The position numbers were made by a program, and so were the translations under genes. A stretch of 64,000 bases of DNA from IMG/VR virus record IMGVR_UViG_3300010352_001343; one strand, written 5' to 3'. Positions within the stretch are counted from its first letter, which is position 1; each line of letters begins with the position of its first letter. Source of the stretch: an uncultured virus (IMG/VR IMGVR_UViG_3300010352_001343) (lineage: Duplodnaviria > Heunggongvirae > Uroviricota > Caudoviricetes). The notes below the pieces were generated by a model. The model was not told the origin of the DNA. It worked only from the letters and a program-made list of their open reading frames with translations, and ran no database searches. Shown here piece by piece: positions 5,197 through 63,885 of the stretch.

Positions 5197-6972
5197 ATGA
5201 ACTCACCAAACGTAAATTTTCATTTTGAGAACAATAATGTAGCCCCAATGGTACCTTCTAAAGGGGTAACCAACGTTCTTGCAGTAACCACAAAAGGTAA
5301 TTTTGAAGAACCAACCCTTTGTGAATCATTAACACAATTTCAAAACATCTTTGGTAAAGAAGTTGTACCAGATGGTACTATTTCAAATATTGAAAGAGGT
5401 TTTAAATTAGGTTCTAAACTAAGGATTTGTAGGGTTCTCGGTGCCGGACAATCAGCTTTTGGAGAAGCTAAAAGTTATGACCCATCAACGGGTACCACTG
5501 GAGAAACCGCTACAAATATTTCTATCTTCTTGGAAGATCCAATTGATAACACTAAAAAGATTGAGATTAAGTACAAAATTACTACTAGAGAAAAAGGTTC
5601 TAATGTAGTATCCGAGTATGGTTACAATCTTAATCGTAATTTCTATCTACAATTAAAAGAAGTAATTACCAATGGTATTGCAAGAGTTTATATTACTCAG
5701 TTTAAATCTTTTAATACTGATGATTCTATCAATACCAATTCTGTAATCAACCAAGCTTTGTTATTGGCTTCTACTGCTTCTGTAACTTCTGGTGTAGAAA
5801 CAATGGTTGACCAACAATCAATTATTGATTTCTTACAAAATACTCCAAACATCACCTTAACCTATGTTTCAATTACTTCCAGTGGTACTGGAGTACCAAC
5901 ATATACTGGGCTTGATTTAGAAGGTTCAGTTAATGTTATTAAGGAACACAATGCCTGGTTGGGTTATGTAAAGATTGGAGCTGCTACTCTTGAAACACCA
6001 AGCATACAAGTAATTAATGAGGGTACTAATGGTGGAGCTTCATCATCAGCCACTTGGATTTCTGCTTACAATAAAATAAAGGGTGAAAGTGCTTACCATT
6101 TAATCTGTTCTCATATGCACCAACATATTGCTACAGATTATGTAACTACCGTTAAAAGTATAGCTGAGTCAGTAGCAAGTTTATTTGATACAGAATTCTT
6201 TGTTGAAATTCCAAAAACAAATACTGATGGTACTTTCAGAACTGCTGCTGAAACTAAATCTGCAGTTGATACAATTAAAACTACTGTTGGTTATCATAAA
6301 AACGTAGCTTACTTTGGTGGTGGTATTAAACTATACAACTCGGATGGTATTTTGAAAAAATGTGATGTATTGGGAACAGTTATTGGATTAGCCGATGTAT
6401 CTGCAGAACAATATGGTCCTTACTATTCATTTGCAAATCAAAACCGTGGTTTAGTACCAGATGGGCATGGTCCAATTATTGAAAACCTTGGAAGTCCAGC
6501 TATGGTAGAAACACTTAACCAATTTGCTACATCTCGTATTAATATCTTTGTTGTTAAAGATACTGAAACTGCTGGTAAACAAACTATGTTATGGCACAAC
6601 TACACATCACTTAATTTGGAAAGTTCTGACCGGTTCTTATCTACTATTGGTTTACAACTTTATCTAAAGAAAACATTAAAACCAAAATTAGAAAAGTATC
6701 TTGAAGAGCCAAATACATTCAGTACCTGGAAAGATATTTATCTATCTAATAAAAAGGTATTTGATGATTTGGTTGGGATTGCTATAACCGAATATACTTG
6801 GATAGGTGATCAAAATGCGAAGAACTACTCTCAATTAACATTGAACACTGAAGCTGAAGTAAGACAAGGTAAATATAAAATCAAAGTAAGTTATAAGGAT
6901 ATTGTAAGCTTACAAGAAATTAGTATTTACTTAAGTATTGATACAGCAAATGGTACAGTAAGTATTAACTAA
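5197..6972 (+). CDS. contractile tail sheath protein
   Basis: SPNV.F N-terminus, TKG.FEEPTL..S..QF..IFG, S.AN..RG.V, EPNT..TW C-terminal sheath motifs; 591 aa. Confidence 0.85.
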   Translation: MNSPNVNFHFENNNVAPMVPSKGVTNVLAVTTKGNFEEPTLCESLTQFQNIFGKEVVPDGTISNIERGFKLGSKLRICRVLGAGQSAFGEAKSYDPSTGTTGETATNISIFLEDPIDNTKKIEIKYKITTREKGSNVVSEYGYNLNRNFYLQLKEVITNGIARVYITQFKSFNTDDSINTNSVINQALLLASTASVTSGVETMVDQQSIIDFLQNTPNITLTYVSITSSGTGVPTYTGLDLEGSVNVIKEHNAWLGYVKIGAATLETPSIQVINEGTNGGASSSATWISAYNKIKGESAYHLICSHMHQHIATDYVTTVKSIAESVASLFDTEFFVEIPKTNTDGTFRTAAETKSAVDTIKTTVGYHKNVAYFGGGIKLYNSDGILKKCDVLGTVIGLADVSAEQYGPYYSFANQNRGLVPDGHGPIIENLGSPAMVETLNQFATSRINIFVVKDTETAGKQTMLWHNYTSLNLESSDRFLSTIGLQLYLKKTLKPKLEKYLEEPNTFSTWKDIYLSNKKVFDDLVGIAITEYTWIGDQNAKNYSQLTLNTEAEVRQGKYKIKVSYKDIVSLQEISIYLSIDTANGTVSIN

Positions 6973-7514: not shown

Positions 7515-8264
7515 ATGGAAAAAACATTTACAGTACCATCTGGTCACAGTTACACAATACGTGAACAAAATGGGGCAGATGATGATATCTTATCATCAAA
7601 AGTTGAGTTAGAAAAACTAATGAACATCACTAATTTCATTAGTGCTATCGTAGTTAAAACTGATTACACAGAAAGTGGTAAGCTATCACCAGAAGAAGCT
7701 TATACATTACCAGTGTTAGATAGAAATGTTATCTTGATACAATCAAGAATACATTCTCTTGGTAAAGATGTAGAATTTGATTTTGAATGGAAAAAAGATT
7801 TAAAAGTCTCATATATCCAGGATTTAGAAGAATTAATCTTTACTGATTACAGTAAGGTACCAGAGAAAGAAGAAATCATGGCTAAACCAGATGCTGTACC
7901 ATATTACCCAATAAAACAATTTAAAGATTTAAAAATTACAACTACCAGCGGTAAAGTATTTTTATTTGATATCTATACTAATGACCAAGAAGTAAGATAT
8001 ATGAATTTACCATTGGCTGAACAAACCAAAAATAAAAAATTAACTTGCCGTAACCTTAGATTACTAATAGATGGTAAACCAGTAGTTGTAAGTAACTTTG
8101 ATATGTTCTCTGTACAAGAAATGAAAGAGATAAACAAAGCTATCAAGGATATGGATCCTGTTTACAGTGGTTATATTTATATCAATAACCCTGACAACCC
8201 TAATCAAAAATACCCAATTAACATTTTCTCATTGGACAGTTTTTTCTATTTAGAAGAGATTTAA
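7515..8264 (+). CDS. tail assembly chaperone (G form)
   Basis: Between tube and tape measure; PSG..Y.IRE..G.D.DIL and L.V.DR..IL...RI.SLG motifs. Confidence 0.7.
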   Translation: MEKTFTVPSGHSYTIREQNGADDDILSSKVELEKLMNITNFISAIVVKTDYTESGKLSPEEAYTLPVLDRNVILIQSRIHSLGKDVEFDFEWKKDLKVSYIQDLEELIFTDYSKVPEKEEIMAKPDAVPYYPIKQFKDLKITTTSGKVFLFDIYTNDQEVRYMNLPLAEQTKNKKLTCRNLRLLIDGKPVVVSNFDMFSVQEMKEINKAIKDMDPVYSGYIYINNPDNPNQKYPINIFSLDSFFYLEEI

Positions 8265-8404
8265 TAAATGATTTTTCCTATTTACATATATTAGGGGTGC
8301 ACATAACTCTAGCTGAGTTAAAATCATTACCTTTTAGTGATAGAGAAAAACTTATTAAATACTCTGAAGAATATTATAAACAGTATAAACCAAACTTATT
8401 TTAA
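8240..8404 (+). CDS. -1 frameshift extension of tail assembly chaperone (GT form)
   Basis: Slippery T TTT TTC at 8240-8246; -1 frame is open to TAA at 8402-8404, 2 nt before the tape measure ATG. Confidence 0.75.
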   Translation, partial: FFLFRRDLINDFSYLHILGVHITLAELKSLPFSDREKLIKYSEEYYKQYKPNLF

Positions 8405-8406
8405 TC

Positions 8407-10506
8407 ATGCCAGTATTCACAGCGGGGTCACCCAACTCAAATAACCTAGAAATTGGAATTGCCATAGTACTTAAAGATAGGTTCTCTAATCAAGCCAGAG
8501 AAGCTTCTGCTGCTATTAGACAATTACATCGAGATGCCAAGAGTGCTATTAATGCCAATTTACAAGCAGCTAATTCTGCATCAATGGTTGGTATGGCTGC
8601 CGCTGTAGGTATGGGCAACCAAATTAGAAACATAGTACAAGAAGGTGCTAACTTTGTAGATACCATGACCACTGTAAAGGTAATCAGTGGTGCTACAGCT
8701 GAACAATCAGTTATACTTGGTAAAACAGCCAAAGCCTTAGGTGAAAGTACAATGCTATATGCTAGAGATGTTGCATCCGGTATGCAGTATTTAGCTATGT
8801 CCGGTAATAAAGCTAAAGCCATTAATAATATGATCACAGCTGCATCACATATGGCAGTAGCTACTAACATGGAATTAGGTGGTAAGGGTGGTACCGCTGA
8901 CTTACTCACTAACATCATGCATATGTTTAACATAGAGGGTGAGAAGGCTGCTAATGTAGTCGGTGATCAATTAACAAAGGCAGCATTATCAGCTAACATG
9001 TCTATGATGGATTTGGCTGAAGCTATTAAATATGCTGGTAGTGATATGGTACTTTTAAAACAAAATGTACCGCAGGTAGCTGCTATGGCTGGGGTATTAG
9101 GTAATGCTGGTATTCAAGCTTCAATGGCTGGTACTGCCATGTCTAACATGGCAAGATATTTTAATAAAGCTATATCGGATACTAATTATAAAGGAAATAA
9201 GGTATTAAAGAAACTTGGTTTAGGAAAAGAAGATTTCATAGATGCTAAAGGTGATTTATTAGATTTTGGTATAATTCTTGGAAAAATCAAAGAAAGTTTA
9301 AAAGGTGCTAGTTCCACTGATGTAAACCAAGTAATGTTAAATATATTTGGAGTTAGAGGTATGAGAGCTGGGGCTGTTTTAATGAACAACCTAGATACTT
9401 ATAAACAATTACTACATGATATTACCTTTGAATCTCAAGGCTTTATGCAAAACATCGTAGCTGAGAGGATGAGTAATTTATCTGGTTCTCTAGATAGAAT
9501 GGTATCAACCTTGGAGAATATTAGAATTGCTTTCGCTGAATCATTAGGACCAGTATTTATACCAATATTTAATGCTATGTCCTGGGTATTTGGTAAAGTT
9601 AAAGCCTTATTCGAAATACCAGTACTTGGTACTGTTATAAGTACTACAATGGCTTTAGGTGTAGCTATATTAGGGGTTGGTTCTGCTATTATGTTTTTAA
9701 GAACCAAATGGCTTATTCTAAGAAATGATTCTCAAGTAAGTGGGGCCAGTATGTTCTCATTACTCATGGGTGGATGGGATGGAGCCAGACTAAAAGCCGA
9801 AAGGTATATGGCAGTTGAGAATGCCATTATTGCACAAAGAAAAGCCGGCATTATGGGTAATGTACCATATTCAGTTATGCAAACGATGCCAAGTGGAACT
9901 GTACTTAATGGGGTTAAACAAGTTACTACTAAAGCTGGTAAACAAATATATTTTCAACAAACCGAAGAAGGTGGTTGGAAAAGAGTATCGGCTGCTTTTG
10001 GAGTAGGTATGATGGCTTCAGCTAATGCAAAACAAACTACTGAAACCTTAATGGGTGGGGCCGCTGCAGATGGGGCTAAGAAAATGATCGGTGGTACTGG
10101 TATATTGAAATCTATTGGTGGAGTTTTAGGTAAAGCTCTTGGATTTTTAACTGGCCCATGGGGTATGGGTATTATGGCTGCTGCCACTATAGGTATACCT
10201 TTATTAAGATCAGCTTTAAGTGGTTTAAAGAGCTCTGTTGATAATTCAAAAGATTCTACCTTATCATTAGAAGAAACCATACAACGTGATATCCAACAAC
10301 GGCAAGCCGAGAAAGATAATCCAACTAGTGAAGATCTTTTGAAAGAAATGAGGGCTTTAGTACAATCAATTCAATATTGGTCAAAAGGTGGTAATCTAAA
10401 TAAGAAACCACAAGTAATAACAATTAATATTGATGGTAAAGGTGTTATGAAACAAGTTATAGAAGAGTATGAAAAAGATATTAATATTGACACAAACACT
10501 AAATAA
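8407..10506 (+). CDS. tail tape measure protein (TP901-type core)
   Basis: Ala/Gly/Met-rich helical protein; LAEAIKYAG, LGNAGIQASMAGTA and IFGVRG motifs. Confidence 0.9.
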   Translation: MPVFTAGSPNSNNLEIGIAIVLKDRFSNQAREASAAIRQLHRDAKSAINANLQAANSASMVGMAAAVGMGNQIRNIVQEGANFVDTMTTVKVISGATAEQSVILGKTAKALGESTMLYARDVASGMQYLAMSGNKAKAINNMITAASHMAVATNMELGGKGGTADLLTNIMHMFNIEGEKAANVVGDQLTKAALSANMSMMDLAEAIKYAGSDMVLLKQNVPQVAAMAGVLGNAGIQASMAGTAMSNMARYFNKAISDTNYKGNKVLKKLGLGKEDFIDAKGDLLDFGIILGKIKESLKGASSTDVNQVMLNIFGVRGMRAGAVLMNNLDTYKQLLHDITFESQGFMQNIVAERMSNLSGSLDRMVSTLENIRIAFAESLGPVFIPIFNAMSWVFGKVKALFEIPVLGTVISTTMALGVAILGVGSAIMFLRTKWLILRNDSQVSGASMFSLLMGGWDGARLKAERYMAVENAIIAQRKAGIMGNVPYSVMQTMPSGTVLNGVKQVTTKAGKQIYFQQTEEGGWKRVSAAFGVGMMASANAKQTTETLMGGAAADGAKKMIGGTGILKSIGGVLGKALGFLTGPWGMGIMAAATIGIPLLRSALSGLKSSVDNSKDSTLSLEETIQRDIQQRQAEKDNPTSEDLLKEMRALVQSIQYWSKGGNLNKKPQVITINIDGKGVMKQVIEEYEKDINIDTNTK

Positions 10507-24573: not shown

Positions 24574-25128
24574 ATGTTAAATATTCAATTTGTAAAAACA
24601 AGAGATGTAATCTCACCACAACGATCAAGTTTAGAAGAGGCTGGTATAGATTTCTTTATACCTACATTCTCACAAGTTTTCTTTAATGACCTTAATAAAT
24701 GTAATCCACTTCATGGGAGACATTATACTATCTTAAATAGGCCAGGCTCCGAACCAGAGATTGAATTATTAAAAGGTGGAAGGATTTTAATACCATCTGG
24801 TATCAAGGTATATTTACCATTTAAAACCTGTTTACAAGTAAATAATAAAAGTGGGGTCTCTAGTAAAGAAGGTTTAATATACACCGCACAAGTAATTGAT
24901 GCCACCTACTATGGAGAAGTCCATCTTGGAGTAGCTAATATCTCAAATAAGTCTGTATTCTTAACTAGCGGTAAAAAGTTATTACAGATGCTACATCTAC
25001 CAATATATACCTCAGAAATGCAAGAAGTTGGTATAGATGAATATGATGAATTAGTAAAACTAAGACCAACAGAGAGAGGTGATAATGGGTTTGGTTCAAA
25101 TTATGAGCAATTAAAAAATAAACAATAA
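24574..25128 (+). CDS. dut: trimeric dUTPase
   Basis: AGIDF, IPSGI, KSG, VIDATYYGE, RGDNGFGS (motifs 1-5). Confidence 0.9.
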   Translation: MLNIQFVKTRDVISPQRSSLEEAGIDFFIPTFSQVFFNDLNKCNPLHGRHYTILNRPGSEPEIELLKGGRILIPSGIKVYLPFKTCLQVNNKSGVSSKEGLIYTAQVIDATYYGEVHLGVANISNKSVFLTSGKKLLQMLHLPIYTSEMQEVGIDEYDELVKLRPTERGDNGFGSNYEQLKNKQ

Positions 25129-25139
25129 AACAACTAAAG

Positions 25140-26018
25140 ATGGATTCAAGAGACATTAAAGAAGAACCAAGAATTGATTCTCATTACTTAGAGAGTATGT
25201 TCTTAATGCAAGAAGATTTAATTAAAAGTTATTCTAGGATAGAGAATATACCTCTACCACCAATTGATGTAAACACTAAAAAATCTCAGTCAATAATTAA
25301 AGATTTTTCAGCCAGGATAATTGAAGAATTATCTGAAGGCTTTGAAAGTTATGAAGCTATTTATCAAAGCTTATCAACACACCAATTGTTCTTCAATAGA
25401 TCACCCAGGGATTTTGAAGAAGTAGTAAGAAGTTTTCAAAACTTACAAAACTTAAGTGAAGAATTGGCTGATGCTATTCATTTCTATTTAGAGTTATTGA
25501 TTTATGTAAATGTTGGCCCAGATGATATCATCAGTTATATTGAGAAGTTTGTACCAGAGGTAGTTATTGAGAAATCTCTCTTCCAAGAAACCCTTACTGA
25601 TATAATGGAGACCGGTTCTATTCTTATAAGAAGAAAATATCCAGAAGTAGATATCTTCAAACAATCAATCAATCAAGTAGATTTATACAAGGTTGCTGAG
25701 GATTTTGATTTTGGTATTACTCATCATAAATTAAAAACTTTAGGTTCAGTAATTACTATGAATGGAGAAGTACTACATAAATGTATTTTGTGGGACATTA
25801 CTCACCACATCAATATAGCTAGAAACTTTTTAAAAAATAAACCATGGAAACAAACACAAATGTTGACCCAGGAAGCTGCATTCCAAGGTGAATTAGTTAG
25901 GGGGTTTATTTTGTTAATGGGTTATTTAGCTATATTAGGTGGAGATGCAGGATTGGTATATTATATTTATTTTAAGAAGAATCTAGTAAATAGGTTTAGA
26001 ATTGAAAGTAAATACTAA
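25140..26018 (+). CDS. all-alpha dNTP pyrophosphatase (dimeric dUTPase/dCTPase, T4 gp56-like), internally duplicated
   Basis: EELSE, EELADAIHF, KPWK and YFKKNLVNRFR...Y motifs. Confidence 0.75.
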   Translation: MDSRDIKEEPRIDSHYLESMFLMQEDLIKSYSRIENIPLPPIDVNTKKSQSIIKDFSARIIEELSEGFESYEAIYQSLSTHQLFFNRSPRDFEEVVRSFQNLQNLSEELADAIHFYLELLIYVNVGPDDIISYIEKFVPEVVIEKSLFQETLTDIMETGSILIRRKYPEVDIFKQSINQVDLYKVAEDFDFGITHHKLKTLGSVITMNGEVLHKCILWDITHHINIARNFLKNKPWKQTQMLTQEAAFQGELVRGFILLMGYLAILGGDAGLVYYIYFKKNLVNRFRIESKY

Positions 26019-26019
26019 A

Positions 26020-26790
26020 ATGATTTTTTCTAATTTTATGGAGGCTTGGGAGGTTATCAATTTAATGGTAATCTCCCCTTCTCTTCTTCAAAAGAAGAGG
26101 TATCATGTGGTTGAATTACCAAAAGCTAAATATTTTTATAATGTGACCTTTGAGGTATTAGATCCTAAAGTAGACCCAAAATTTAACTTCGGCAGACATT
26201 TTAATTATACTATGTCCAAATGGACTAGTCTAGTGAAAAATTATGTTGATATAAATATTCTATCAGAATTTAAAAAAGAAATTCTAGGAAATAATAAAAA
26301 GGTCTATAATCTATCATACCAATTCACTAATAATCATAAGCACGGAAAACAATGTTTAATATCATTTACAGTAACCAAAAAGCCATTAAAAAATAGCAAA
26401 CCACAATTATCTGTTTATATGAGGGCTTCAGAAGTAACTAAAAGGTTAATATGTGACTTCTTATTAATACAGAGGATTGGTGAATACTTATTTGATGGTA
26501 GAGAATTTACAGTTGTTTTCAACATAGTTCAAATGTTTAATGATGAGACAGTTTTATTGATGTTTCATTCTTATAAAGATATCAGACCAATACTTAATGA
26601 GAAAATTAAAAAGAATGGAAATAATGCTAAATCTGAGATTGCCTTACTTAAGAATCTGAATGAGTTCGAGAAGAAGGACCCTAAAGATGTTAAATATAAA
26701 GTTCATAAAAGAGCTTTAAAAGTTTTGAGGCCAGACCTTTTCAAATACCCAAAAACACTGGCTTCAGAATGTAGACTCCCAATTAATTAA
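26020..26790 (+). CDS. divergent thymidylate-synthase-fold protein
   Basis: QCL (catalytic Cys position), L.VYMRASEVTKRLICD aligns with the TS RSxD-x7-N/D motif; ATG at 26020. Confidence 0.6.
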   Translation: MIFSNFMEAWEVINLMVISPSLLQKKRYHVVELPKAKYFYNVTFEVLDPKVDPKFNFGRHFNYTMSKWTSLVKNYVDINILSEFKKEILGNNKKVYNLSYQFTNNHKHGKQCLISFTVTKKPLKNSKPQLSVYMRASEVTKRLICDFLLIQRIGEYLFDGREFTVVFNIVQMFNDETVLLMFHSYKDIRPILNEKIKKNGNNAKSEIALLKNLNEFEKKDPKDVKYKVHKRALKVLRPDLFKYPKTLASECRLPIN

Positions 26791-26807
26791 TATTAAACTA
26801 TTATATA

Positions 26808-27023
26808 ATGAAAACAGAAGACATTAAACAAGTAAGGATAATAGATACCTTTGGTACTACTACTATGGGAGTACAAAATTCTATATTTAATGATGGTATT
26901 CTAACATTAGAAATTGATAGACATCATCATAAAATGTTTGAGCCACATAACCATACTGGCCAACCACTTACTGACCAAGAATACATTGATACATTAAAAC
27001 TAAAAACTAAAAAAGATGAGTAG
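26808..27023 (+). CDS. hypothetical protein
   Basis: ORF track; lies between the two TS paralogues. Confidence 0.55.
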   Translation: MKTEDIKQVRIIDTFGTTTMGVQNSIFNDGILTLEIDRHHHKMFEPHNHTGQPLTDQEYIDTLKLKTKKDE

Positions 27024-27747
27024 AATTTATTCAAATTGCTATGACCTTATGTCTGAAACAGGTCGTAATTTATGGGAAATGGGTGCAATAGTAACCCCAA
27101 AAACGTACCAAAACAAAGTTATCGAAGGTAATGACGATTTTATTACCAAAGAGCTAATCTGTGAACAATATATACTAACTTCACTTGAAAATGAAGAAAT
27201 GTTGTTCATTTATGACCAAGATAGTAAACCATGGGCCAAAGCTGAATTAAGAGAAAGGATTGGTATGAAACCGGTTAATCCAGGTGAAGCTTATCTTGAA
27301 AGAAAACACCTGTGGGAAGAATTTTTAAATGAGTTTAATAGATTTGATTATACTTATGCTGAGAGATTCAACCATAAAGGTAACTTTGAGAGATTAATTG
27401 ATCTCTTAAAAATGGACCCAGATACAAGACAAGGGATTCTACCAGTTTTCAGCCTTGATGATCCATTTAATGCTGGAGGCATTAAACGAATACCTTGTTC
27501 TATGTATTACAGCTTTTTAATTAGAAAAGATGCAAATGGTGAATCAATGTTACATATTAATTATCATCAACGTAGTTGTGACTTTGTTGCACACTTTGGT
27601 AATGATGTATGGTTAGCTTTTAAGATTATGGAATATGTAGCTGGGAGATTAAATATCAAACCTGGTTATTTAACACATACCATTGATAGCTTACATACTT
27701 ATAAAAGAGATTGGTTAAAACTAAAACAATCACTTAACGAAATATAA
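27016..27747 (+). CDS. thymidylate-synthase family, predicted dCMP-modifying enzyme (hydroxymethylase/methylase-like)
   Basis: DYTYAER, DPDTRQ, IPCS, QRSCDFVAHFGND, SLHTY; Asp at the E. coli ThyA Asn177 position. Confidence 0.8.
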   Translation: MSRIYSNCYDLMSETGRNLWEMGAIVTPKTYQNKVIEGNDDFITKELICEQYILTSLENEEMLFIYDQDSKPWAKAELRERIGMKPVNPGEAYLERKHLWEEFLNEFNRFDYTYAERFNHKGNFERLIDLLKMDPDTRQGILPVFSLDDPFNAGGIKRIPCSMYYSFLIRKDANGESMLHINYHQRSCDFVAHFGNDVWLAFKIMEYVAGRLNIKPGYLTHTIDSLHTYKRDWLKLKQSLNEI

Positions 27748-27748
27748 T

Positions 27749-30127
27749 ATGGCTAAAAGTAAATTATCTAAACACTATGTCATTGATAGTGATGATGATT
27801 TAGAAAGACTTATTCAGGCTTGTAAAAAAACCAGAGTTATTGCTTATGACTTTGAAACTACGGGCCTGAAGAAGTTTAATAAAGACTTCAAAGCTACACT
27901 ATTATCAATAACCTTTCAAGCTGGGAGTTCTATAATAATACCACTATGTCATCATGAAAGAACACCTAAACAACAAAAACAAGGTTTAAAATGGTTAGAA
28001 AAATTTGGTAGGGAAATATTAGAGAATCCACTAATTACTAAGTATGCTTGGAATATGAAGTATGATAACCAAGTGTTACGTCTATATAATATCTATATTA
28101 GAGGTATTTTAATTGATGGTATGTTAGCTAAATATACGCTTGATGAATCAAAGCCAAATGATTTAAAAAGTATGGTTGTTAGATATTTACCTAAAAAAGC
28201 TGGTTATCAAAAAGAATCAAATTTTGATAAATGGCCATGGGATAAAAAACCTTGGGATTTATTAAAAGCATATGCCGCCACAGATACCGATGCTACTTTC
28301 CAATTATGCACATTCTTTGAAAAGAGGTTAATAGAAGAAGGTTTCTACCCATTATTCCGTAATCTAATTATGGCAGCCTCTAAAGTACTAACTAATGTTG
28401 AATATCATGGATTACCAATTAATTGGGACTTTAATAAAGAGCTAGAAATTAAATATAGTAAACTTATAGAAGATATTAATTTAGAAATAAGATCTTTACC
28501 ACCTATTGTAAGATTTCAAAAGAGATACAATAAAGATCGGGTTAATACCTATATTTCTAAGTTAGAGTCCGATTTAGAAGATTTAGAAAATGATAGAACT
28601 TTAATGTTAAGGGCTACAAAAACAGATCAAAATGAGTTAACTAAGATTGATAAAAAGATCAAATCAATTGAGACCAGAATTTCTAATGTTTTAACTGGTG
28701 TTTATACAAATAATAAAGAAAGACTCTTACTACGACCTATTAATTTTGGTTCTACTCAAGAGATGGTTAAATTACTATATGAAGCTAAGTATGGGTTAAA
28801 ACTACCAGTATTAAAATACACTAAAAACAAAAACAAAAAGAACCGAGGTAAAAAAGAAGTTAAGAATCCAAGTACTGATGAAGAAGTTTTAGAAAAACTA
28901 ATTAAAGAAGGTTATGATAGTTCTGGGTTTATTTCTAAGCTTTTAAAACTTAGAGATTATGAACACAACATGAGCACCTTTATACTTGGTTATCAATCAT
29001 TCAAACAAGATGATGGTAAGATGCATGGGTCTTTCCACATACATGGAACAGTAACTGGTAGGTTAAGTAGTAGTGAACCAAATCTACAACAAATACCAAA
29101 AAAAGAAGTTAACCAAGATATTAAAAAACAATATATAACTCCAAAAGGTAAACTATTCTTTTCTTATGACTACTCGCAAGCTGAGTTAAGAATGATGGCT
29201 CACTTATCAGGTGATGAAACATTATTAGAAGCGTTTAGAACTGGGAAGGATCCACACTTACTCATTGCTTGTAAGAAATATGGTTTTGATTATGATAAAA
29301 TCTACCCAATCTACAAAGATGAAACCCATAAAGATTATAAGATATGGAAAGTTCGTAGGAAACAAGCTAAACAAATTGTATTTGGTACCATCTATGGTAT
29401 TGAAGCATTAAAACTATCTCAACAGTTATCAGATCCAAAGAACAATATTATTGTAACTGAATCTGAAGCTCAACAATTCTTAGATGAATTCTTCAATGAC
29501 TATCCAAAGATTAAAAGATTTATTGAAAAACAAGGTAAATATATGGAAAGACATGGTTATGTATTTTCAGTCTTTGGAAGAAAACGAAGATGTCCAACAA
29601 TTTATTCTGATAAACCATGGGAATACAATGAAGCCAAAAGACAAGCTGTAAATGCACCATGTCAATCTGCTGGTAGTGATATGGCATTATTTGCAAGTAT
29701 ATTACTTGATAGGAAGATGAGATCTGGTAAATTACCAAAAATGCCAGAGGTATCAACCGTACATGATGCTTTATATCACTTTGCTCACCCATCATACCTA
29801 AATCCATATACTATTTACAATTTCCATAAGATTTGTAAAAACCCAAACACCAAAAAATATTTTGGATTTAGTATAGATGATGTCTCAATGGAAGTTGATT
29901 TCAAAGTTGGTAGAACTCTAGAGGAAGAACTACCATATATCCCTGGTTATGACTATTCTAATTTACTAAAACCAGATTTCTCACCAGAAGAATATCTAAA
30001 ACTTTCTAATGAAACCAATGATATAAATCCTGAAGATTACCCAAAACATTATCCTCAGTATTTTACAAAAGATTTCAAAAGAGCTTTCAAAAAACAATAT
30101 ACTAAGATATTTAATAACGATGATTAA
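27749..30127 (+). CDS. polA: family A DNA polymerase with 3'-5' exonuclease domain
   Basis: DFETTG, WNMKYD, YAATD exo motifs; TGRLSSSEPNLQ, DYSQAELR, RKQAKQIVFGTIYG, VHD. Confidence 0.95.
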   Translation: MAKSKLSKHYVIDSDDDLERLIQACKKTRVIAYDFETTGLKKFNKDFKATLLSITFQAGSSIIIPLCHHERTPKQQKQGLKWLEKFGREILENPLITKYAWNMKYDNQVLRLYNIYIRGILIDGMLAKYTLDESKPNDLKSMVVRYLPKKAGYQKESNFDKWPWDKKPWDLLKAYAATDTDATFQLCTFFEKRLIEEGFYPLFRNLIMAASKVLTNVEYHGLPINWDFNKELEIKYSKLIEDINLEIRSLPPIVRFQKRYNKDRVNTYISKLESDLEDLENDRTLMLRATKTDQNELTKIDKKIKSIETRISNVLTGVYTNNKERLLLRPINFGSTQEMVKLLYEAKYGLKLPVLKYTKNKNKKNRGKKEVKNPSTDEEVLEKLIKEGYDSSGFISKLLKLRDYEHNMSTFILGYQSFKQDDGKMHGSFHIHGTVTGRLSSSEPNLQQIPKKEVNQDIKKQYITPKGKLFFSYDYSQAELRMMAHLSGDETLLEAFRTGKDPHLLIACKKYGFDYDKIYPIYKDETHKDYKIWKVRRKQAKQIVFGTIYGIEALKLSQQLSDPKNNIIVTESEAQQFLDEFFNDYPKIKRFIEKQGKYMERHGYVFSVFGRKRRCPTIYSDKPWEYNEAKRQAVNAPCQSAGSDMALFASILLDRKMRSGKLPKMPEVSTVHDALYHFAHPSYLNPYTIYNFHKICKNPNTKKYFGFSIDDVSMEVDFKVGRTLEEELPYIPGYDYSNLLKPDFSPEEYLKLSNETNDINPEDYPKHYPQYFTKDFKRAFKKQYTKIFNNDD

Positions 30128-30552: not shown

Positions 30553-30939
30553 ATGGATTACAAATTAAAATTTTTAAACAAAGAAGTATTAGCTGAAGTT
30601 AGAAAAAACTTAAGAGGTGTACCACCAGCTGACAAGGTAGTGATCATATCACCAAAAGAATACAAATCTTCTAGTGGTATAATTGTAGAACAAAAAACTG
30701 ATGCTTTACCACGTAAAGGTCAAATTATACAATTACCAAACCATGTATCAGAGTTATATGAGGCCTTTAAAAATGACTTAAATGCTGGTAATATTGTTAC
30801 TTATGGTATGTACGCTGGTAAAGAACTAGTAATGGATTATCTGGAGATACCAGATCAAAAAAATTACATTATTTCAGTGTTGAGTTTAAATGAAATTATG
30901 TATATTGAACAATTAACAAAAGACGATTATGAAAGTTAA
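30553..30939 (+). CDS. groES: co-chaperonin GroES-like
   Basis: P.ADKVVI, KSSSGIIV, G.I, G.IV.YG.YAG.E, EI pattern. Confidence 0.75.
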   Translation: MDYKLKFLNKEVLAEVRKNLRGVPPADKVVIISPKEYKSSSGIIVEQKTDALPRKGQIIQLPNHVSELYEAFKNDLNAGNIVTYGMYAGKELVMDYLEIPDQKNYIISVLSLNEIMYIEQLTKDDYES

Positions 30940-32939: not shown

Positions 32940-33897
32940 AGATAATAACCTATTAATGTTGATAGATGGTAGTAACCTCGCTTATAGAGCTTATTACAGG
33001 TTTAAAAAACTAAAATTCAAAGATATACCAACTGGTTTAGTATTTGGATTCTTACGTCAATTATGGATCTATATAACTAGATTTCAACCAAATGATATTA
33101 TAGTTATATTTGATACTTCAAAATCCAAGAAAAGTAATTTCCGTAATAAACTCTTACCAGACTATAAAGGTAATAGAAAACAAGATTTATCATTTAATAT
33201 TGAAGACTTCAATGGTCAATTAATTAAAGTAAGAAAGATCTTAAGAAGACTAGGTATTAAAGTAGTTTGGGATAATGAGGGGTTAAAACATGAGACCGAT
33301 GATTACATAGCTTACTATTCACAAAAACATAAAGGAAAATGTGTTATCATATCTGGCGATAAGGATTTCTGTCAATTAATAAGCCCATCAGTTAAGATGT
33401 TAAAAGTTCAGGGTGAAAAAGACAACCTAATATATGAGTCCAATTGTAAAGAGATCATGGGCGTAGAAGCAAATCAATTTGCTGATTACCTTACTATGGT
33501 TGGTGATAATTCTGATAATATCAAGGGGTATTTTGGTATTGGTGAAGTTAAAGGTAAGCAGTTCTTTGAACAGTTCAAATCCATTAAAAGTTTTCTATTA
33601 ACACCCACAGCTACTTTCAAAGGCATTGACAAAGATGGTTTAAGAGATTTATATAACCGTAATAAATACTTAGTCAACCTGAAAAAAGCATTGAAAAAAT
33701 ACCCAATTAAAAAAGTACCACTAATAAAACCAAGACAATTCAACTATGATAAGATTATAGCTATGTTTGAAGAATATGGTTTAAAATCTTTTACGTTAGA
33801 TGATTTCTTAAAACCTTTTAAACAATTACAAAATGAAAGTAATGATGGCCGGGCCATCCGGAATAGGAAAAACAACCTTAGCAAAAATACTAAGTGA
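32923..33897 (+). CDS. 5'-3' (flap) exonuclease
   Basis: LIDGSNLAYRAY, YKGNR, ETDD, SGDKDF.QL, GDNSDNIKG..GIG. Confidence 0.9.
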   Translation: MKKRSKDNNLLMLIDGSNLAYRAYYRFKKLKFKDIPTGLVFGFLRQLWIYITRFQPNDIIVIFDTSKSKKSNFRNKLLPDYKGNRKQDLSFNIEDFNGQLIKVRKILRRLGIKVVWDNEGLKHETDDYIAYYSQKHKGKCVIISGDKDFCQLISPSVKMLKVQGEKDNLIYESNCKEIMGVEANQFADYLTMVGDNSDNIKGYFGIGEVKGKQFFEQFKSIKSFLLTPTATFKGIDKDGLRDLYNRNKYLVNLKKALKKYPIKKVPLIKPRQFNYDKIIAMFEEYGLKSFTLDDFLKPFKQLQNESNDGRAIRNRKNNLSKNTK

Positions 33898-34462
33898 AGA
33901 TCTAAACATACCATTCATATCAGGTTCATATTCTGAGCTGGTACCATCTACTAAAGATGTCAAACATGAAGATATGATAAAAAAGAATACACAAGATATA
34001 TTACAAGAAGATATAGATCTTTTTCGTAAAAGAAGAGATATCTTTAATAATGCAATAGAGTTTATATCGGATAGGTCTTTTGTAGATAATATAGCTTATC
34101 ATATTAATAAGTTATCATACCAAGTAGATGAATCAGATATAACTATCTTTATTGATGCTTGTATACAATCTCTAGCCACCATACCAACACATTTGATATT
34201 TATACCTTATAGAGCTGATATGATAGATAGTTTTAAAATTGAAGACAATCATAAAAGGATAATTAATCCATGGTATCAAATTCAAATCAGTAGTTTAATG
34301 ACTACTATTATAACACAACTTTTAAATAAAACCTTTATGACTAAAGATAATTACAAATCAATGGTATCTAAAGAAGATGGTTTAAAAGTTTTAGTGTTAT
34401 TAACAACTAACTTAGAAGAACGTGTAAATATAACTAAACAATTTTTAACTGATGAATCCTAA
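33833..34462 (+). CDS. P-loop nucleotide (dNMP-type) kinase
   Basis: GPSGIGKTT; ISDRSFVDNIAY. Confidence 0.7.
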   Translation: MKVMMAGPSGIGKTTLAKILSEDLNIPFISGSYSELVPSTKDVKHEDMIKKNTQDILQEDIDLFRKRRDIFNNAIEFISDRSFVDNIAYHINKLSYQVDESDITIFIDACIQSLATIPTHLIFIPYRADMIDSFKIEDNHKRIINPWYQIQISSLMTTIITQLLNKTFMTKDNYKSMVSKEDGLKVLVLLTTNLEERVNITKQFLTDES

Positions 34463-62299: not shown

Positions 62300-62641
62300 C
62301 TATTTTTTATTCTGTCTATTTCTTTCGATAGTTATCATCTCAGCACCAGATAAACTATGGTGATTATCAATTTTAGATGCAATATGTTTCTGTAAAATAG
62401 CTTTTTCTATTACTGATATCATATCAGAAACCGTTGATGAACTTAAGAATAGATTTTCTAAGTATAAACCTTCTAAGTTTAGATTAAAAAAGTTTTCTAG
62501 ATTAAGCATTACCTCCACTTTATCAAGTGAATCTAAACCTAAATTATCTAAGGTTGATTCCAAAGGAATGTCTATATCATTTGGTAATTCAATACCTAAT
62601 TTCTTTTTAATCTCTATTAATACTGCTGCTGTTGTGTCCAT
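62300..62641 (-). CDS. acyl carrier protein-like
   Basis: LDNLGLDSLDKVEVMLNLENFF (phosphopantetheine Ser in DSL) and TVSDMI. Confidence 0.8.
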   Translation of the reverse strand: MDTTAAVLIEIKKKLGIELPNDIDIPLESTLDNLGLDSLDKVEVMLNLENFFNLNLEGLYLENLFLSSSTVSDMISVIEKAILQKHIASKIDNHHSLSGAEMITIERNRQNKK

Positions 62642-63381: not shown

Positions 63382-63885
63382 TTACCTAGTTTTATTTAAA
63401 CCATTAATAGCTACCCATCTCTCATCCAATTCTTTAGCTTTATCCAAATACCATTTTTCTTTAGCTAGATCCTGATTAAAATCATCTTTAAGACCAAGTC
63501 TTAAACGATATTTCATAGCTGTCATAATACAAAAGTCAATAGTTTTTTCTAAACCAAAAATCCCAATTAACATATCAATAACTTCGATGGGGTATTGGTT
63601 ATAATGTGCTGGATGGTTTACTTGTTCTTTATCAGTTTTTAATTCATTAAAAGCTTCTCCAAGTTTTTTAATGCTTTTAACCGGTGATGTTATACTTGGT
63701 GGAATCGAATTAGTTGAACCCATACCAACTGAAGTTGGTGTATGTGGTATACTTTGAACTGATTTACCTCTTTCACCACCTAACCGTTGGTCTACCTTAG
63801 TTATTTTTTCTTCTAAAATGACTGGTTTTTGATTTCTCTTAGAACCTGGTTGTGGTCCTCTTTTCTTTTTTACTGGTGTTTCCAT
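63382..63885 (-). CDS. DUF3310-family protein (T7 gp1.7 nucleotide-kinase-like)
   Basis: VNHPAHY....IEVID...FC...AMKY..R.G.K....QDL.K..WYL. Confidence 0.8.
   Translation of the reverse strand: METPVKKKRGPQPGSKRNQKPVILEEKITKVDQRLGGERGKSVQSIPHTPTSVGMGSTNSIPPSITSPVKSIKKLGEAFNELKTDKEQVNHPAHYNQYPIEVIDMLIGIFGLEKTIDFCIMTAMKYRLRLGLKDDFNQDLAKEKWYLDKAKELDERWVAINGLNKTR

Follow-up and report, generated by a model that had tools for sequence, protein, structure and literature searches.

A Conserved Phage Cassette Pairing an Asp-Type Thymidylate Synthase Homologue With a Second Protein of Predicted Thymidylate Synthase Fold

Introduction

Positions 24,574 to 30,127 of the window, by which the whole 64,000-nucleotide stretch analyzed here is meant (uncultured Caudoviricetes virus, IMG/VR record IMGVR_UViG_3300010352_001343), carry on the plus strand a contiguous run of genes for a trimeric-type dUTPase, an all-alpha NTP pyrophosphatase (NTP-PPase), two proteins assigned to the thymidylate synthase (TS) superfamily, referred to as A and B, with a small open reading frame (ORF) between them, and a family A DNA polymerase (PolA). 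All six ORFs lie where an earlier interpretation made from the letters of the DNA (the sequence-only reading) had placed them, and the peptides that it quoted are correct, B reading YHQRSCDFVAHFGNDVW and A reading VYMRASEVTKRLICDFLL. It had proposed that A and B are TS paralogues of the dCMP type that serve the replacement of cytosine by a modified cytosine.

That TS homologues modify pyrimidines before replication is well established, and such modification is the entry to most known phage DNA hypermodifications. Its branches, leading to 5-hydroxymethylcytosine, 5-hydroxymethyluracil, 5-methylcytosine (5mC) and 5-hydroxycytosine (2025-26), have each brought new chemistry, restriction-evasion biology and tools. 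In phage T4, the dCMP hydroxymethylase (dCH) gp42 (PDB 1B5D, 6A9A, 6L18) works with the dCTPase gp56 and the dNMP kinase gp1. What is new at the present locus is the family of A and its obligate pairing with a distinct, tail-less TS clade that has Arg at position 143 and Asp at position 177 (such positions are those of E. coli ThyA; residues of A and B carry their own numbers).

Gene B, a TS Homologue of the dCMP Type

Gene B (27016..27747, +) encodes an Asp-type TS homologue with a truncated C-terminus, which is recognized by Pfam as PF00303 (E 8.1e-14). The AF2 model has a pLDDT of 94.5, and its top Foldseek matches are MilA (E 3.6e-16, TMq 0.79) and AfhB (E 8.1e-15); AfhB is also the first match among PDB sequences, at E 7e-6 for B alone and 1.4e-12 with the family profile. 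PF00303 is found in all of the 120 matches listed among the relatives of B (843 at E<=1e-3 among 946 candidates). BLASTP against three characterized enzymes gives E 3.7e-10 for the Xp12 TS, 4.9e-7 for T4 gp42 and 2.8e-6 for ThyA. The NCBIfam thymidylate synthase cut-offs are not reached (best 39.9 bits vs 174.55; another 35.1 vs 327), and T4 gp42 itself also falls far under them.

The motif set of B comprises C161, R186-S187-x-D189 and D197. The Asp that the sequence-only reading had noticed eight residues after the RSxD acid is D197, and its equivalence to N177 of E. coli and D179 of T4 holds in HMM and MAFFT alignments that are ungapped from R-S-x-D through the next helix, where it also falls on the Asp of the Xp12 TS, MilA and AfhB. 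All 35 close and 8 distant B sequences aligned have Asp at this position, and the Asn of ThyA is thus absent. Position 177 sets the choice between dUMP and dCMP, according to the accessible text of a recent study (PMC13326640), and together with position 147 it is one of the two positions most associated with modification in metaviromes, as stated in the accessible part of another (PMC8670742). B and five distant orthologues keep E58, W80, Y94, R126, C146, R166, S167, D169, H207 and Y209, and carry the changed residues Gln127 or Lys127, Arg143, Ser147, His173, Asn176, Asp177 and Ser205; positions 176, 177 and 205 are as in T4 gp42, and 147 is small and polar in both. By these alignments B is a member of the TS family, of the dCMP type and the folate type.

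Among the known enzymes, B most resembles a dCMP hydroxymethylase, as judged from its residues: D197, C161 and E46 fall on D179, C148 and E60 of T4 gp42, and B has equivalents of the catalytic Cys, Glu58, Trp80, Tyr94, Arg126, Arg166-Ser167, Asp169, Asn176-Asp177, Ser205 and His207/Tyr209. The two proteins are 23% identical over 157 residues and differ at T4 Asp145 (L143 of E. coli), which is Arg in B, and at R127, which is Gln. Both are without the TS C-terminal tail, and that of B is even shorter: 14 residues follow HxY in B and 8 in the distant orthologues, compared with 28 in T4 gp42, 55 in E. coli ThyA and about 61 in the Xp12 TS (B and E. coli counted by script, T4 and Xp12 by hand from the alignment). 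The segment that closes over the folate is therefore missing from B. In the accessible text of PMC6400193, the tail of TS closes the site for methylation and T4 dCH is described as having none; the open C-terminus of B thus favors a hydroxymethyl-type outcome, as far as can be judged from the alignment.

Position 143 gives a less orderly picture. It is hydrophobic in methyl-forming enzymes and Asp or Glu in hydroxymethylases and 5-hydroxy-dCMP synthases, according to the part of PMC13326640 that is accessible, and Asp145 of T4 dCH assists the activation of the substrate water, according to the corresponding part of PMC6400193. B has no acid there; its residue is Arg158, which is invariant in the family. 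The rule is a soft one, since the Xp12 methylase carries Asn at 143.

The remaining comparisons separate B from three other types of enzyme. The flavin-dependent 5-hydroxy-dCMP synthases (HY126 AfhB, PDB 9iqu/9iqc; RB69 gp48; DLP3 gp80) are marked by D169N (PMC13326640, accessible text). AfhB has Asp at 177 and a short C-terminus like B, and it is the best PDB sequence match of B and the best structural match of A; however, D169N is absent from both window proteins (Asp189 in B, Glu138 in A), and at the position of L143 B has Arg and A has Gly, Glu being found in neither. Because Asp169 is kept, B is by the published signature not a 5-hydroxy-dCMP synthase. No arabinose or glycosyl genes were found in the window ORFs scanned, that is, those of the region together with those of at least 90 aa elsewhere. 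The dCMP methyltransferase of Xp12, a Xanthomonas phage with 5mC DNA, shares Asp177, Asp169 and an NTP-PPase neighbor with B, and a deaminase adjoins the TS homologue in Xp12 as in several cassette-bearing phages. The Xp12 TS is, however, full length (PF00303 E 3.2e-40, residues 14-251) with a ThyA-like C-terminal region that B does not have, and the gene immediately upstream, the one position compared for A, encodes a PRA-PH-type pyrophosphatase and not an A-like protein. MilA (CMP 5-hydroxymethylase of mildiomycin biosynthesis; PDB 5JNH, 5B6D) is the best Foldseek match of B and the second best structural match of A, but it is a bacterial antibiotic-pathway enzyme that acts on a ribonucleotide, carries Asp where E. 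coli has L143 and is longer by about 80 residues.

Gene A, a Predicted Separate Branch of the TS Fold

Gene A (26020..26790, +; ORF start 26002/26020) is a phrog_34294-like protein that is placed in the TS superfamily by its structure model and by profile comparison. No family in Pfam or NCBIfam is matched over its cut-off, phmmer against PDB sequences returns two irrelevant matches at E<=10, and the sole library match is the unnamed PHROG phrog_34294. The AF2 model (pLDDT 90.3, pTM 0.89) was compared by VIA-align with 48,161 chains, seven of which reach Z>=8. All seven belong to the TS superfamily, namely 9iqc (AfhB; Z 13.6, rmsd 3.2, 172 aligned), MilA (11.8), three ThyA and one DHFR-TS (9.7-10.5) and T4 dCH (8.9), and the next match has Z 5.3. 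The sequence-only reading would have been contradicted by another fold for A, and the search returned that of TS. Foldseek gives 16 matches at E<=1e-3, those listed being all TS, dCH, MilA or AfhB, with T4 dCH and AfhB at the top (E 1.5e-5; TM 0.40-0.47). Against a library of viral models, A matches two uncharacterized proteins and a protein of phage PMBT14 (E 6e-9, TMq 0.67), followed by annotated TS and dCH proteins, and in a language-model atlas it falls among viral "hypothetical" clusters, one of which has PF00303 on 10% of its members.

The relatives of A, 211 at E<=1e-3 among 760 candidates, have no Pfam domain in the 120 matches listed, and a profile search finds 234 representatives in 1.84 billion proteins. 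PF00303 is recognized in none of 46 distant members, nor in the A-like proteins of PMBT14 and MW202455. This family model is blind to A and its relatives, and A is therefore taken as a separate sequence family inside the TS fold; on its profiles and its model, it is a divergent TS-superfamily protein of an undescribed, phage-specific branch. Scanning genome contigs with the A profile gives six loci, five of them on contigs of metagenome-assembled genomes (four full-length) and one on a 573-base Streptomyces contig, and points to no host.

Across 42 members of the A family, which extend to 17% identity, K67, L71, Y75, F102, C112, R135 and D146 are invariant, and conservation of N14, Y63, W68, L113 and E138 is 90% or higher. 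In hhalign, the broad A family and the B orthologues align with 78.6% probability (E 1.7e-5, 106 columns), pairing C112 of A with C161 of B, R135 with R186, E138 with D189, D146 with D197 and W68 with W100. The Asp eight residues after the acid, which had been proposed for A as for B, is thus predicted to be D146. The sequence-only reading was also right that A lacks the Ser of RSxD, but wrong to hold it against A, as A reads R-A-S-E where the hydroxymethylase MilA reads R-A-x-D. Since the Cys, Arg, acid and Asp are so strongly constrained, an enzyme is expected and not a decaying copy. Neither an HxY nor an RR motif can be seen in the A family alignments, the equivalence of these segments being judged from sequence only.

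The A protein of the window is strongly basic, with an isoelectric point (pI) of 9.7 and a net charge of +19, like the replication proteins of the window that bind DNA (pI >= 9); the nucleotide enzymes of the window lie at 5.3-6.9, and ThyA, gp42 and the Xp12 TS at 5.6-6.4. The B partner is the less basic protein in every one of 13 pairs (A 6.1-9.5, B 5.1-6.1), and A paralogues have Lys-rich C-terminal tails. As a general trait of the family, strong basic charge is ruled out, as six of the 13 A-like proteins have a pI below 8.

Conservation and Linkage of the Cassette

The sequence-only reading had suggested a survey of gene neighborhoods, and the survey speaks for a fixed unit. A is encoded in 516 IMG/VR stretches, and among the best 80 of these, taken as the related loci, the order NTP-PPase, A, B is found in 79: B follows A in 79 (the remaining locus is truncated), an NTP-PPase gene directly precedes A in 79, and dUTPase and PolA genes are present in 78 and 76, respectively. 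A second A paralogue of 329-351 aa, 32-33% identical to the A of the window, stands between NTP-PPase and A in 74 loci; the lineage of the window (L003-L005, in our numbering of loci) is exceptional in having a single A gene. In a distant A subfamily, all six loci (L089-L094) have a PF08761 NTP-PPase, one or two A genes and then a PF00303 gene. They add a ligase, a dCMP-deaminase-family gene and a PolA with a uracil-DNA glycosylase (UDG) domain in L090-L092, UDG-PolA alone in L094 and a Pol III alpha replicase in L093.

The pair also occurs in cultured phages. A and B match the same 10 records of Clostridium perfringens phages, with neighboring coordinates; the arrangement was inspected in CPAS-15 (L002), where the order is kinase, PF08761, A-like (BLASTP E 5e-12), B-like (40% identity) and UDG-PolA. 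The A-like gene of CPAS-15 (5205-5954) has no Pfam match, matches phrog_34294 and is mis-annotated as "colanic acid biosynthesis glycosyltransferase WcaC", and the "shikimate kinase" at 3988-4521 matches phrog_761, thymidylate kinase (E 2.8e-22). An A-like gene stands directly upstream of a TS-like gene in Pseudomonas phage PMBT14 (hhalign 97.5%, E 5.3e-12), Gordonia phage GTE2 (95.5%) and Brevundimonas phage Polewnik (96.9%), and in Yersinia phage P744 and the uncultured MW202455 the gene upstream of the TS-like gene is annotated as "pyrimidine hmase synthase". With tblastn, B matches 161 phage records, of which 68 are from Gordonia phages. Seven of these records were inspected (MT121960, CPAS-15, MW202455, GTE2, Polewnik and P744, with PMBT14 by accession).

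Several features recur among these phages. The B-like genes of PMBT14 and MW202455 have Arg 143, Asp 177 and a short C-terminus as in B. Stop and start codons, or the annotated ORFs, of A and B overlap in PMBT14, GTE2, Polewnik, MW202455, L090, L091 and P744; a kinase gene adjoins the NTP-PPase gene in CPAS-15, PMBT14, GTE2, P744 and MW202455; and B has a deaminase-family gene as its neighbor in L090-L092, PMBT14, GTE2 and P744. MW202455 also encodes ThyX, and A and B are therefore dispensable there for dTMP. In the loci examined, A always accompanies this clade of B. The persistence of the NTP-PPase-A-B order across very different phages, together with the A-B pair in cultured phages, argues for one functional unit.

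Homing-endonuclease-like genes break up the block in relatives (L001:7438-11703 among many loci), an HNH gene stands between A and B at L036:7144-7653 (phrog_59 E 1.2e-35), and at L036:9250-11794 PolA is split around a DUF559 endonuclease-like ORF; several loci give partial PolA matches only, and the annotated 1421-aa "DNA polymerase 1" of MT121960 possibly contains an intein or insertion. In 12 of the 80 loci (L016, at 7955-9575, and L010, L015, L018-L024, L026 and L029), the interval between B and PolA contains genes for an IspD-like cytidylyltransferase (PF01128 E 1.8e-25) and for a LicD-family phosphotransferase (PF04991 E 7.9e-39). LicD enzymes move phospho-alcohols from CDP donors onto hydroxyl acceptors. 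The place of the two genes in the block could point to a phospho-alcohol decoration of hydroxymethylated DNA, or they could equally be morons that act on the host surface; a precedent for LicD-type decoration of phage DNA was not found in a literature search.

Neighboring Genes of Nucleotide Metabolism and Replication

The dUTPase (24574..25128, +) is assigned from PF00692 (E 2.8e-10), phrog_135 dUTPase (E 1.7e-25) and 65 PDB dUTPase sequences matched at E<=0.01. The NTP-PPase (25140..26018, +), of the all-alpha, dimeric-dUTPase/MazG-like type, reaches PF08761 at E 2.8e-5 with 24.9 bits, barely over the cut-off of 22.9, and is matched by phrog_12184/173 nucleotide pyrophosphohydrolase; it has no match among PDB sequences. 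Its BLASTP match to T4 gp56 is weak and confined to the C-terminal part (E 0.013). By analogy to gp56, it is a candidate dCTPase. The 71-aa ORF between A and B (26808..27023, +), whose 3' end overlaps the start of B, belongs to no family and is found in three of the 80 related loci, all of the window's own lineage, and is probably not a cassette member.

Directly downstream of B lies PolA with its 3'-5' exonuclease (27749..30127, +; PF00476 E 8.6e-75, PF01612 E 5.2e-23), in which the Pfam scan finds no UDG domain. An N-terminal UDG domain is present on the family A polymerase of most of the distant cassette-bearing phages inspected (L002:7329-9770, L100:30815-33319 on the minus strand, L098:5941-8355, L090:8642-11173, L092:9116-11617 and L094:8021-10474; these phages include CPAS-15, PMBT14 and MW202455). 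A different, longer UDG-PolA group is tied to T-modified genomes in the accessible part of a 2026 paper.

The sequence-only reading had named two possible kinases. The P-loop nucleotide kinase at 33833..34462 (+) matches phrog_2107/761 "thymidylate kinase" (E 9e-8 / 9e-7), its best NCBIfam match being an archaeal (d)CMP kinase far under the cut-off (E 2.1e-6), and it is a candidate dNMP kinase of the pathway. The protein at 63382..63885 (-) is of the DUF3310 / "nucleotide kinase" type (phrog_236 E 7.8e-19; PF11753 DUF3310 E 3.6e-13), and nothing ties it to the cassette. The dUTPase, NTP-PPase, PolA and P-loop kinase fit the T4-like pre-replicative scheme that had been suggested, and T4 has an analogous combination of NTP-PPase, TS homologue, kinase and polymerase; in contrast, it has no counterpart of A, and the scan of the window ORFs gives no glucosyltransferase. 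The same scan finds no other TS, no ThyX and no glycosyltransferase, in agreement with the sequence-only reading, which had seen neither an Asn-type ThyA nor a glycosyltransferase, and no deaminase match.

A Proposed Pathway for Cytosine Modification

An altered form of cytosine is probably produced for the phage DNA, along a route of which only part is understood. We give slightly better than even odds to the reading of the region as a conserved phage cassette that changes the pool of cytosine nucleotides ahead of replication, B performing a hydroxymethyl step and A acting as a second enzyme. The NTP-PPase and dUTPase would convert dCTP and dUTP to the monophosphates, and the pyrophosphatases would thus supply dCMP and deplete dCTP, like gp56 in T4. 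B, as a dCMP-specific enzyme, would then add a one-carbon unit at C5 via Cys161. Its likeliest product would be 5-hydroxymethyl-dCMP rather than 5-methyl-dCMP, because B lacks the tail that would close the active site during hydride transfer. Phosphorylation to the triphosphate would fall to the P-loop kinase and enzymes of the host, and the PolA next to B would then build the product into DNA.

A is probably a second catalytic enzyme of TS fold, as judged from its conserved residues. With the putative nucleophile Cys112, the phosphate-binding Arg135, the acid Glu138 and the cytosine-type Asp146, it would most likely carry out a further or parallel covalent step on a cytosine nucleotide, possibly in a complex with B. 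Since both proteins have complete-looking catalytic sets, two active sites are favored over a dead partner. It is a rather doubtful prospect, if a consequential one, that A together with its obligate partner clade B makes a pyrimidine that is not yet described in DNA. In such a case, an exocyclic methylene intermediate might react with a nucleophile that is neither hydride nor water, or the addition of Cys at C6 might alter another position of the cytosine nucleotide or of cytosine in DNA.

Four points weigh against a pre-replicative hydroxymethylation pathway with A as its second enzyme. The Arg at 143 of B fits no published product rule. The residue equivalences of A are drawn from one profile comparison at 78.6% together with the fold, and hhalign of the narrower alignments of close A and B relatives gives no meaningful match. 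A shows neither the HxY deoxyribose contacts nor the Arg-Arg loop in its family alignments, which may make the binding of a dNMP in the manner of TS doubtful. Lastly, a deaminase stands beside B in several cassette phages, and five of seven deaminase-linked Asp-type TS homologues made 5-methyl-dCMP, according to the accessible text of a preprint (10.1101/2024.12.05.627091), which favors 5mC.

Alternative Explanations

TS enzymes work as obligate dimers whose subunits share active sites, and an A-B heteromer is plausible in view of the strict linkage of the two genes, the stop codon of A that in several lineages overlaps the start of B, and a B protein that has lost Arg127. Carried further, A and B would be the subunits of one heterodimeric TS-like enzyme with a single product, to which A contributes binding or regulatory elements, a possible explanation although we lean against it. 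Besides the strict co-occurrence and the frequent overlap, it would account for the second Arg of the partner-donated Arg-Arg loop that B has lost (Gln or Lys at 127), and A being the more basic partner in all 13 pairs is also in its favor; however, A and B each keep the Cys, Arg and Asp, pointing to two working sites, and the two A paralogues in 74 of the 80 close loci fit an A/A' pair equally well. Prediction of the A-B complex scored 0.00 in two runs, made without control runs, and counts neither way.

Another possibility is that B is an Xp12-like dCMP methyltransferase. Cytosine would then be replaced by 5mC, dTTP would come from 5-methyl-dCTP by deamination in the relatives that have a deaminase, and A would be an accessory, all of which we consider unlikely. 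Asp177 and the retained Asp169 of B, the deaminase-family gene adjoining B (L090-L092, PMBT14, GTE2 and P744), the five of seven homologues that gave 5-methyl-dCMP in the accessible part of the preprint and the rank of the Xp12 TS as best BLASTP match of the three characterized enzymes are all in line with it. The full ThyA-like C-terminal region of the Xp12 TS, by contrast, is reduced in B to 14 residues after HxY, the tail being described, in the accessible text cited above, as required for closing the site when the methyl group is formed; in addition, no deaminase is matched in the window ORFs scanned, and A is left unexplained.

The charge of A raises the question of a polymeric substrate. 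If A acted on phage DNA after replication, by TS-type addition of its Cys at C6 of (modified) cytosine, this would suit its pI of 9.7 and charge of +19, which group it with the DNA-binding replication proteins, the Lys-rich C-terminal tails of the A paralogues and the apparent lack in A of the HxY deoxyribose contacts of the dNMP-binding TS enzymes. Such an activity is distinctly unlikely, since the basic character is not universal (six of 13 A-like proteins below pI 8), no DNA-binding domain is detected in A and mononucleotides are, to our knowledge, the substrate of all known TS-superfamily enzymes. An ordinary thymidylate supply, with B as a divergent dTMP synthase and A as a decaying paralogue, is very improbable, for although B is over the Pfam TS threshold, is labeled "thymidylate synthase" in public records and is the one TS recognized among the window ORFs scanned, position 177 is Asp and not Asn in every B sequence aligned (35 close, 8 distant), the tail is missing, B is under all NCBIfam TS cut-offs, ThyX stands beside the A-B pair in MW202455 and the catalytic residues of A are invariant to 17% identity, which is not decay.

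Implications for Phage Genome Annotation

The second TS-fold family is invisible to Pfam and NCBIfam and is locked to one Asp-type TS clade. The pairing spans uncultured phages of wastewater and gut and phages of C. perfringens, Pseudomonas, Gordonia, Brevundimonas and Yersinia, which raises the question of why two or three TS-fold proteins occur in this clade and which base results. An answer would also correct the routine annotations of A as "hypothetical", "colanic acid glycosyltransferase" or "pyrimidine hmase synthase" and of B as "thymidylate synthase", and if the pair does make a new pyrimidine, well over 100 cultured phages annotated with "thymidylate synthase + hypothetical protein" would carry an unrecognized base.

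The literature gives little guidance. For the A family, or any TS-fold partner of a TS homologue, nothing was found in the sources within reach, which excluded most subscription journals and supplements, and searches for DNA modification in PMBT14, CPAS-15-type and P744 phages likewise gave nothing. The P744 paper contains no occurrence of restriction, modif, thymidylate, digest or hmase, the accessible parts of the Dolk21 literature are silent on DNA modification, and the AXL3 and dU-DNA papers are unrelated to the cassette.

Surroundings of the Cassette in the Window

The window has a low GC content (about 30%) and belongs to a tailed phage that encodes sheath, tube and baseplate proteins as well as a replication block. 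No cultured phage is closely related to it, and at the nucleotide level it best matches three uncultured phage records (66-68% identity). Near-identical DNA is present in the assembled contigs of 20 sequencing runs from 12 studies of activated sludge, wastewater, feces and soil, and no RNA runs are among the matches listed.

A run of about 30 ORFs at 37712-60000 is without Pfam or PHROG family at the thresholds used, and could conceal a DNA-modifying enzyme, such as a glycosyltransferase, that has diverged beyond the reach of these libraries. At 62300-62641 (-), a 113-aa acyl-carrier-protein-like ORF with a phosphopantetheine attachment site (PF00550 E 3.6e-5; phrog_5934 E 1.5e-7) is unusual for a phage, and no partner enzymes are recognized nearby. 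Within the replication block, a GroES-like co-chaperonin is encoded at 30553-30939 (+; PF00166 E 1e-4, phrog_3188 E 8.5e-8).

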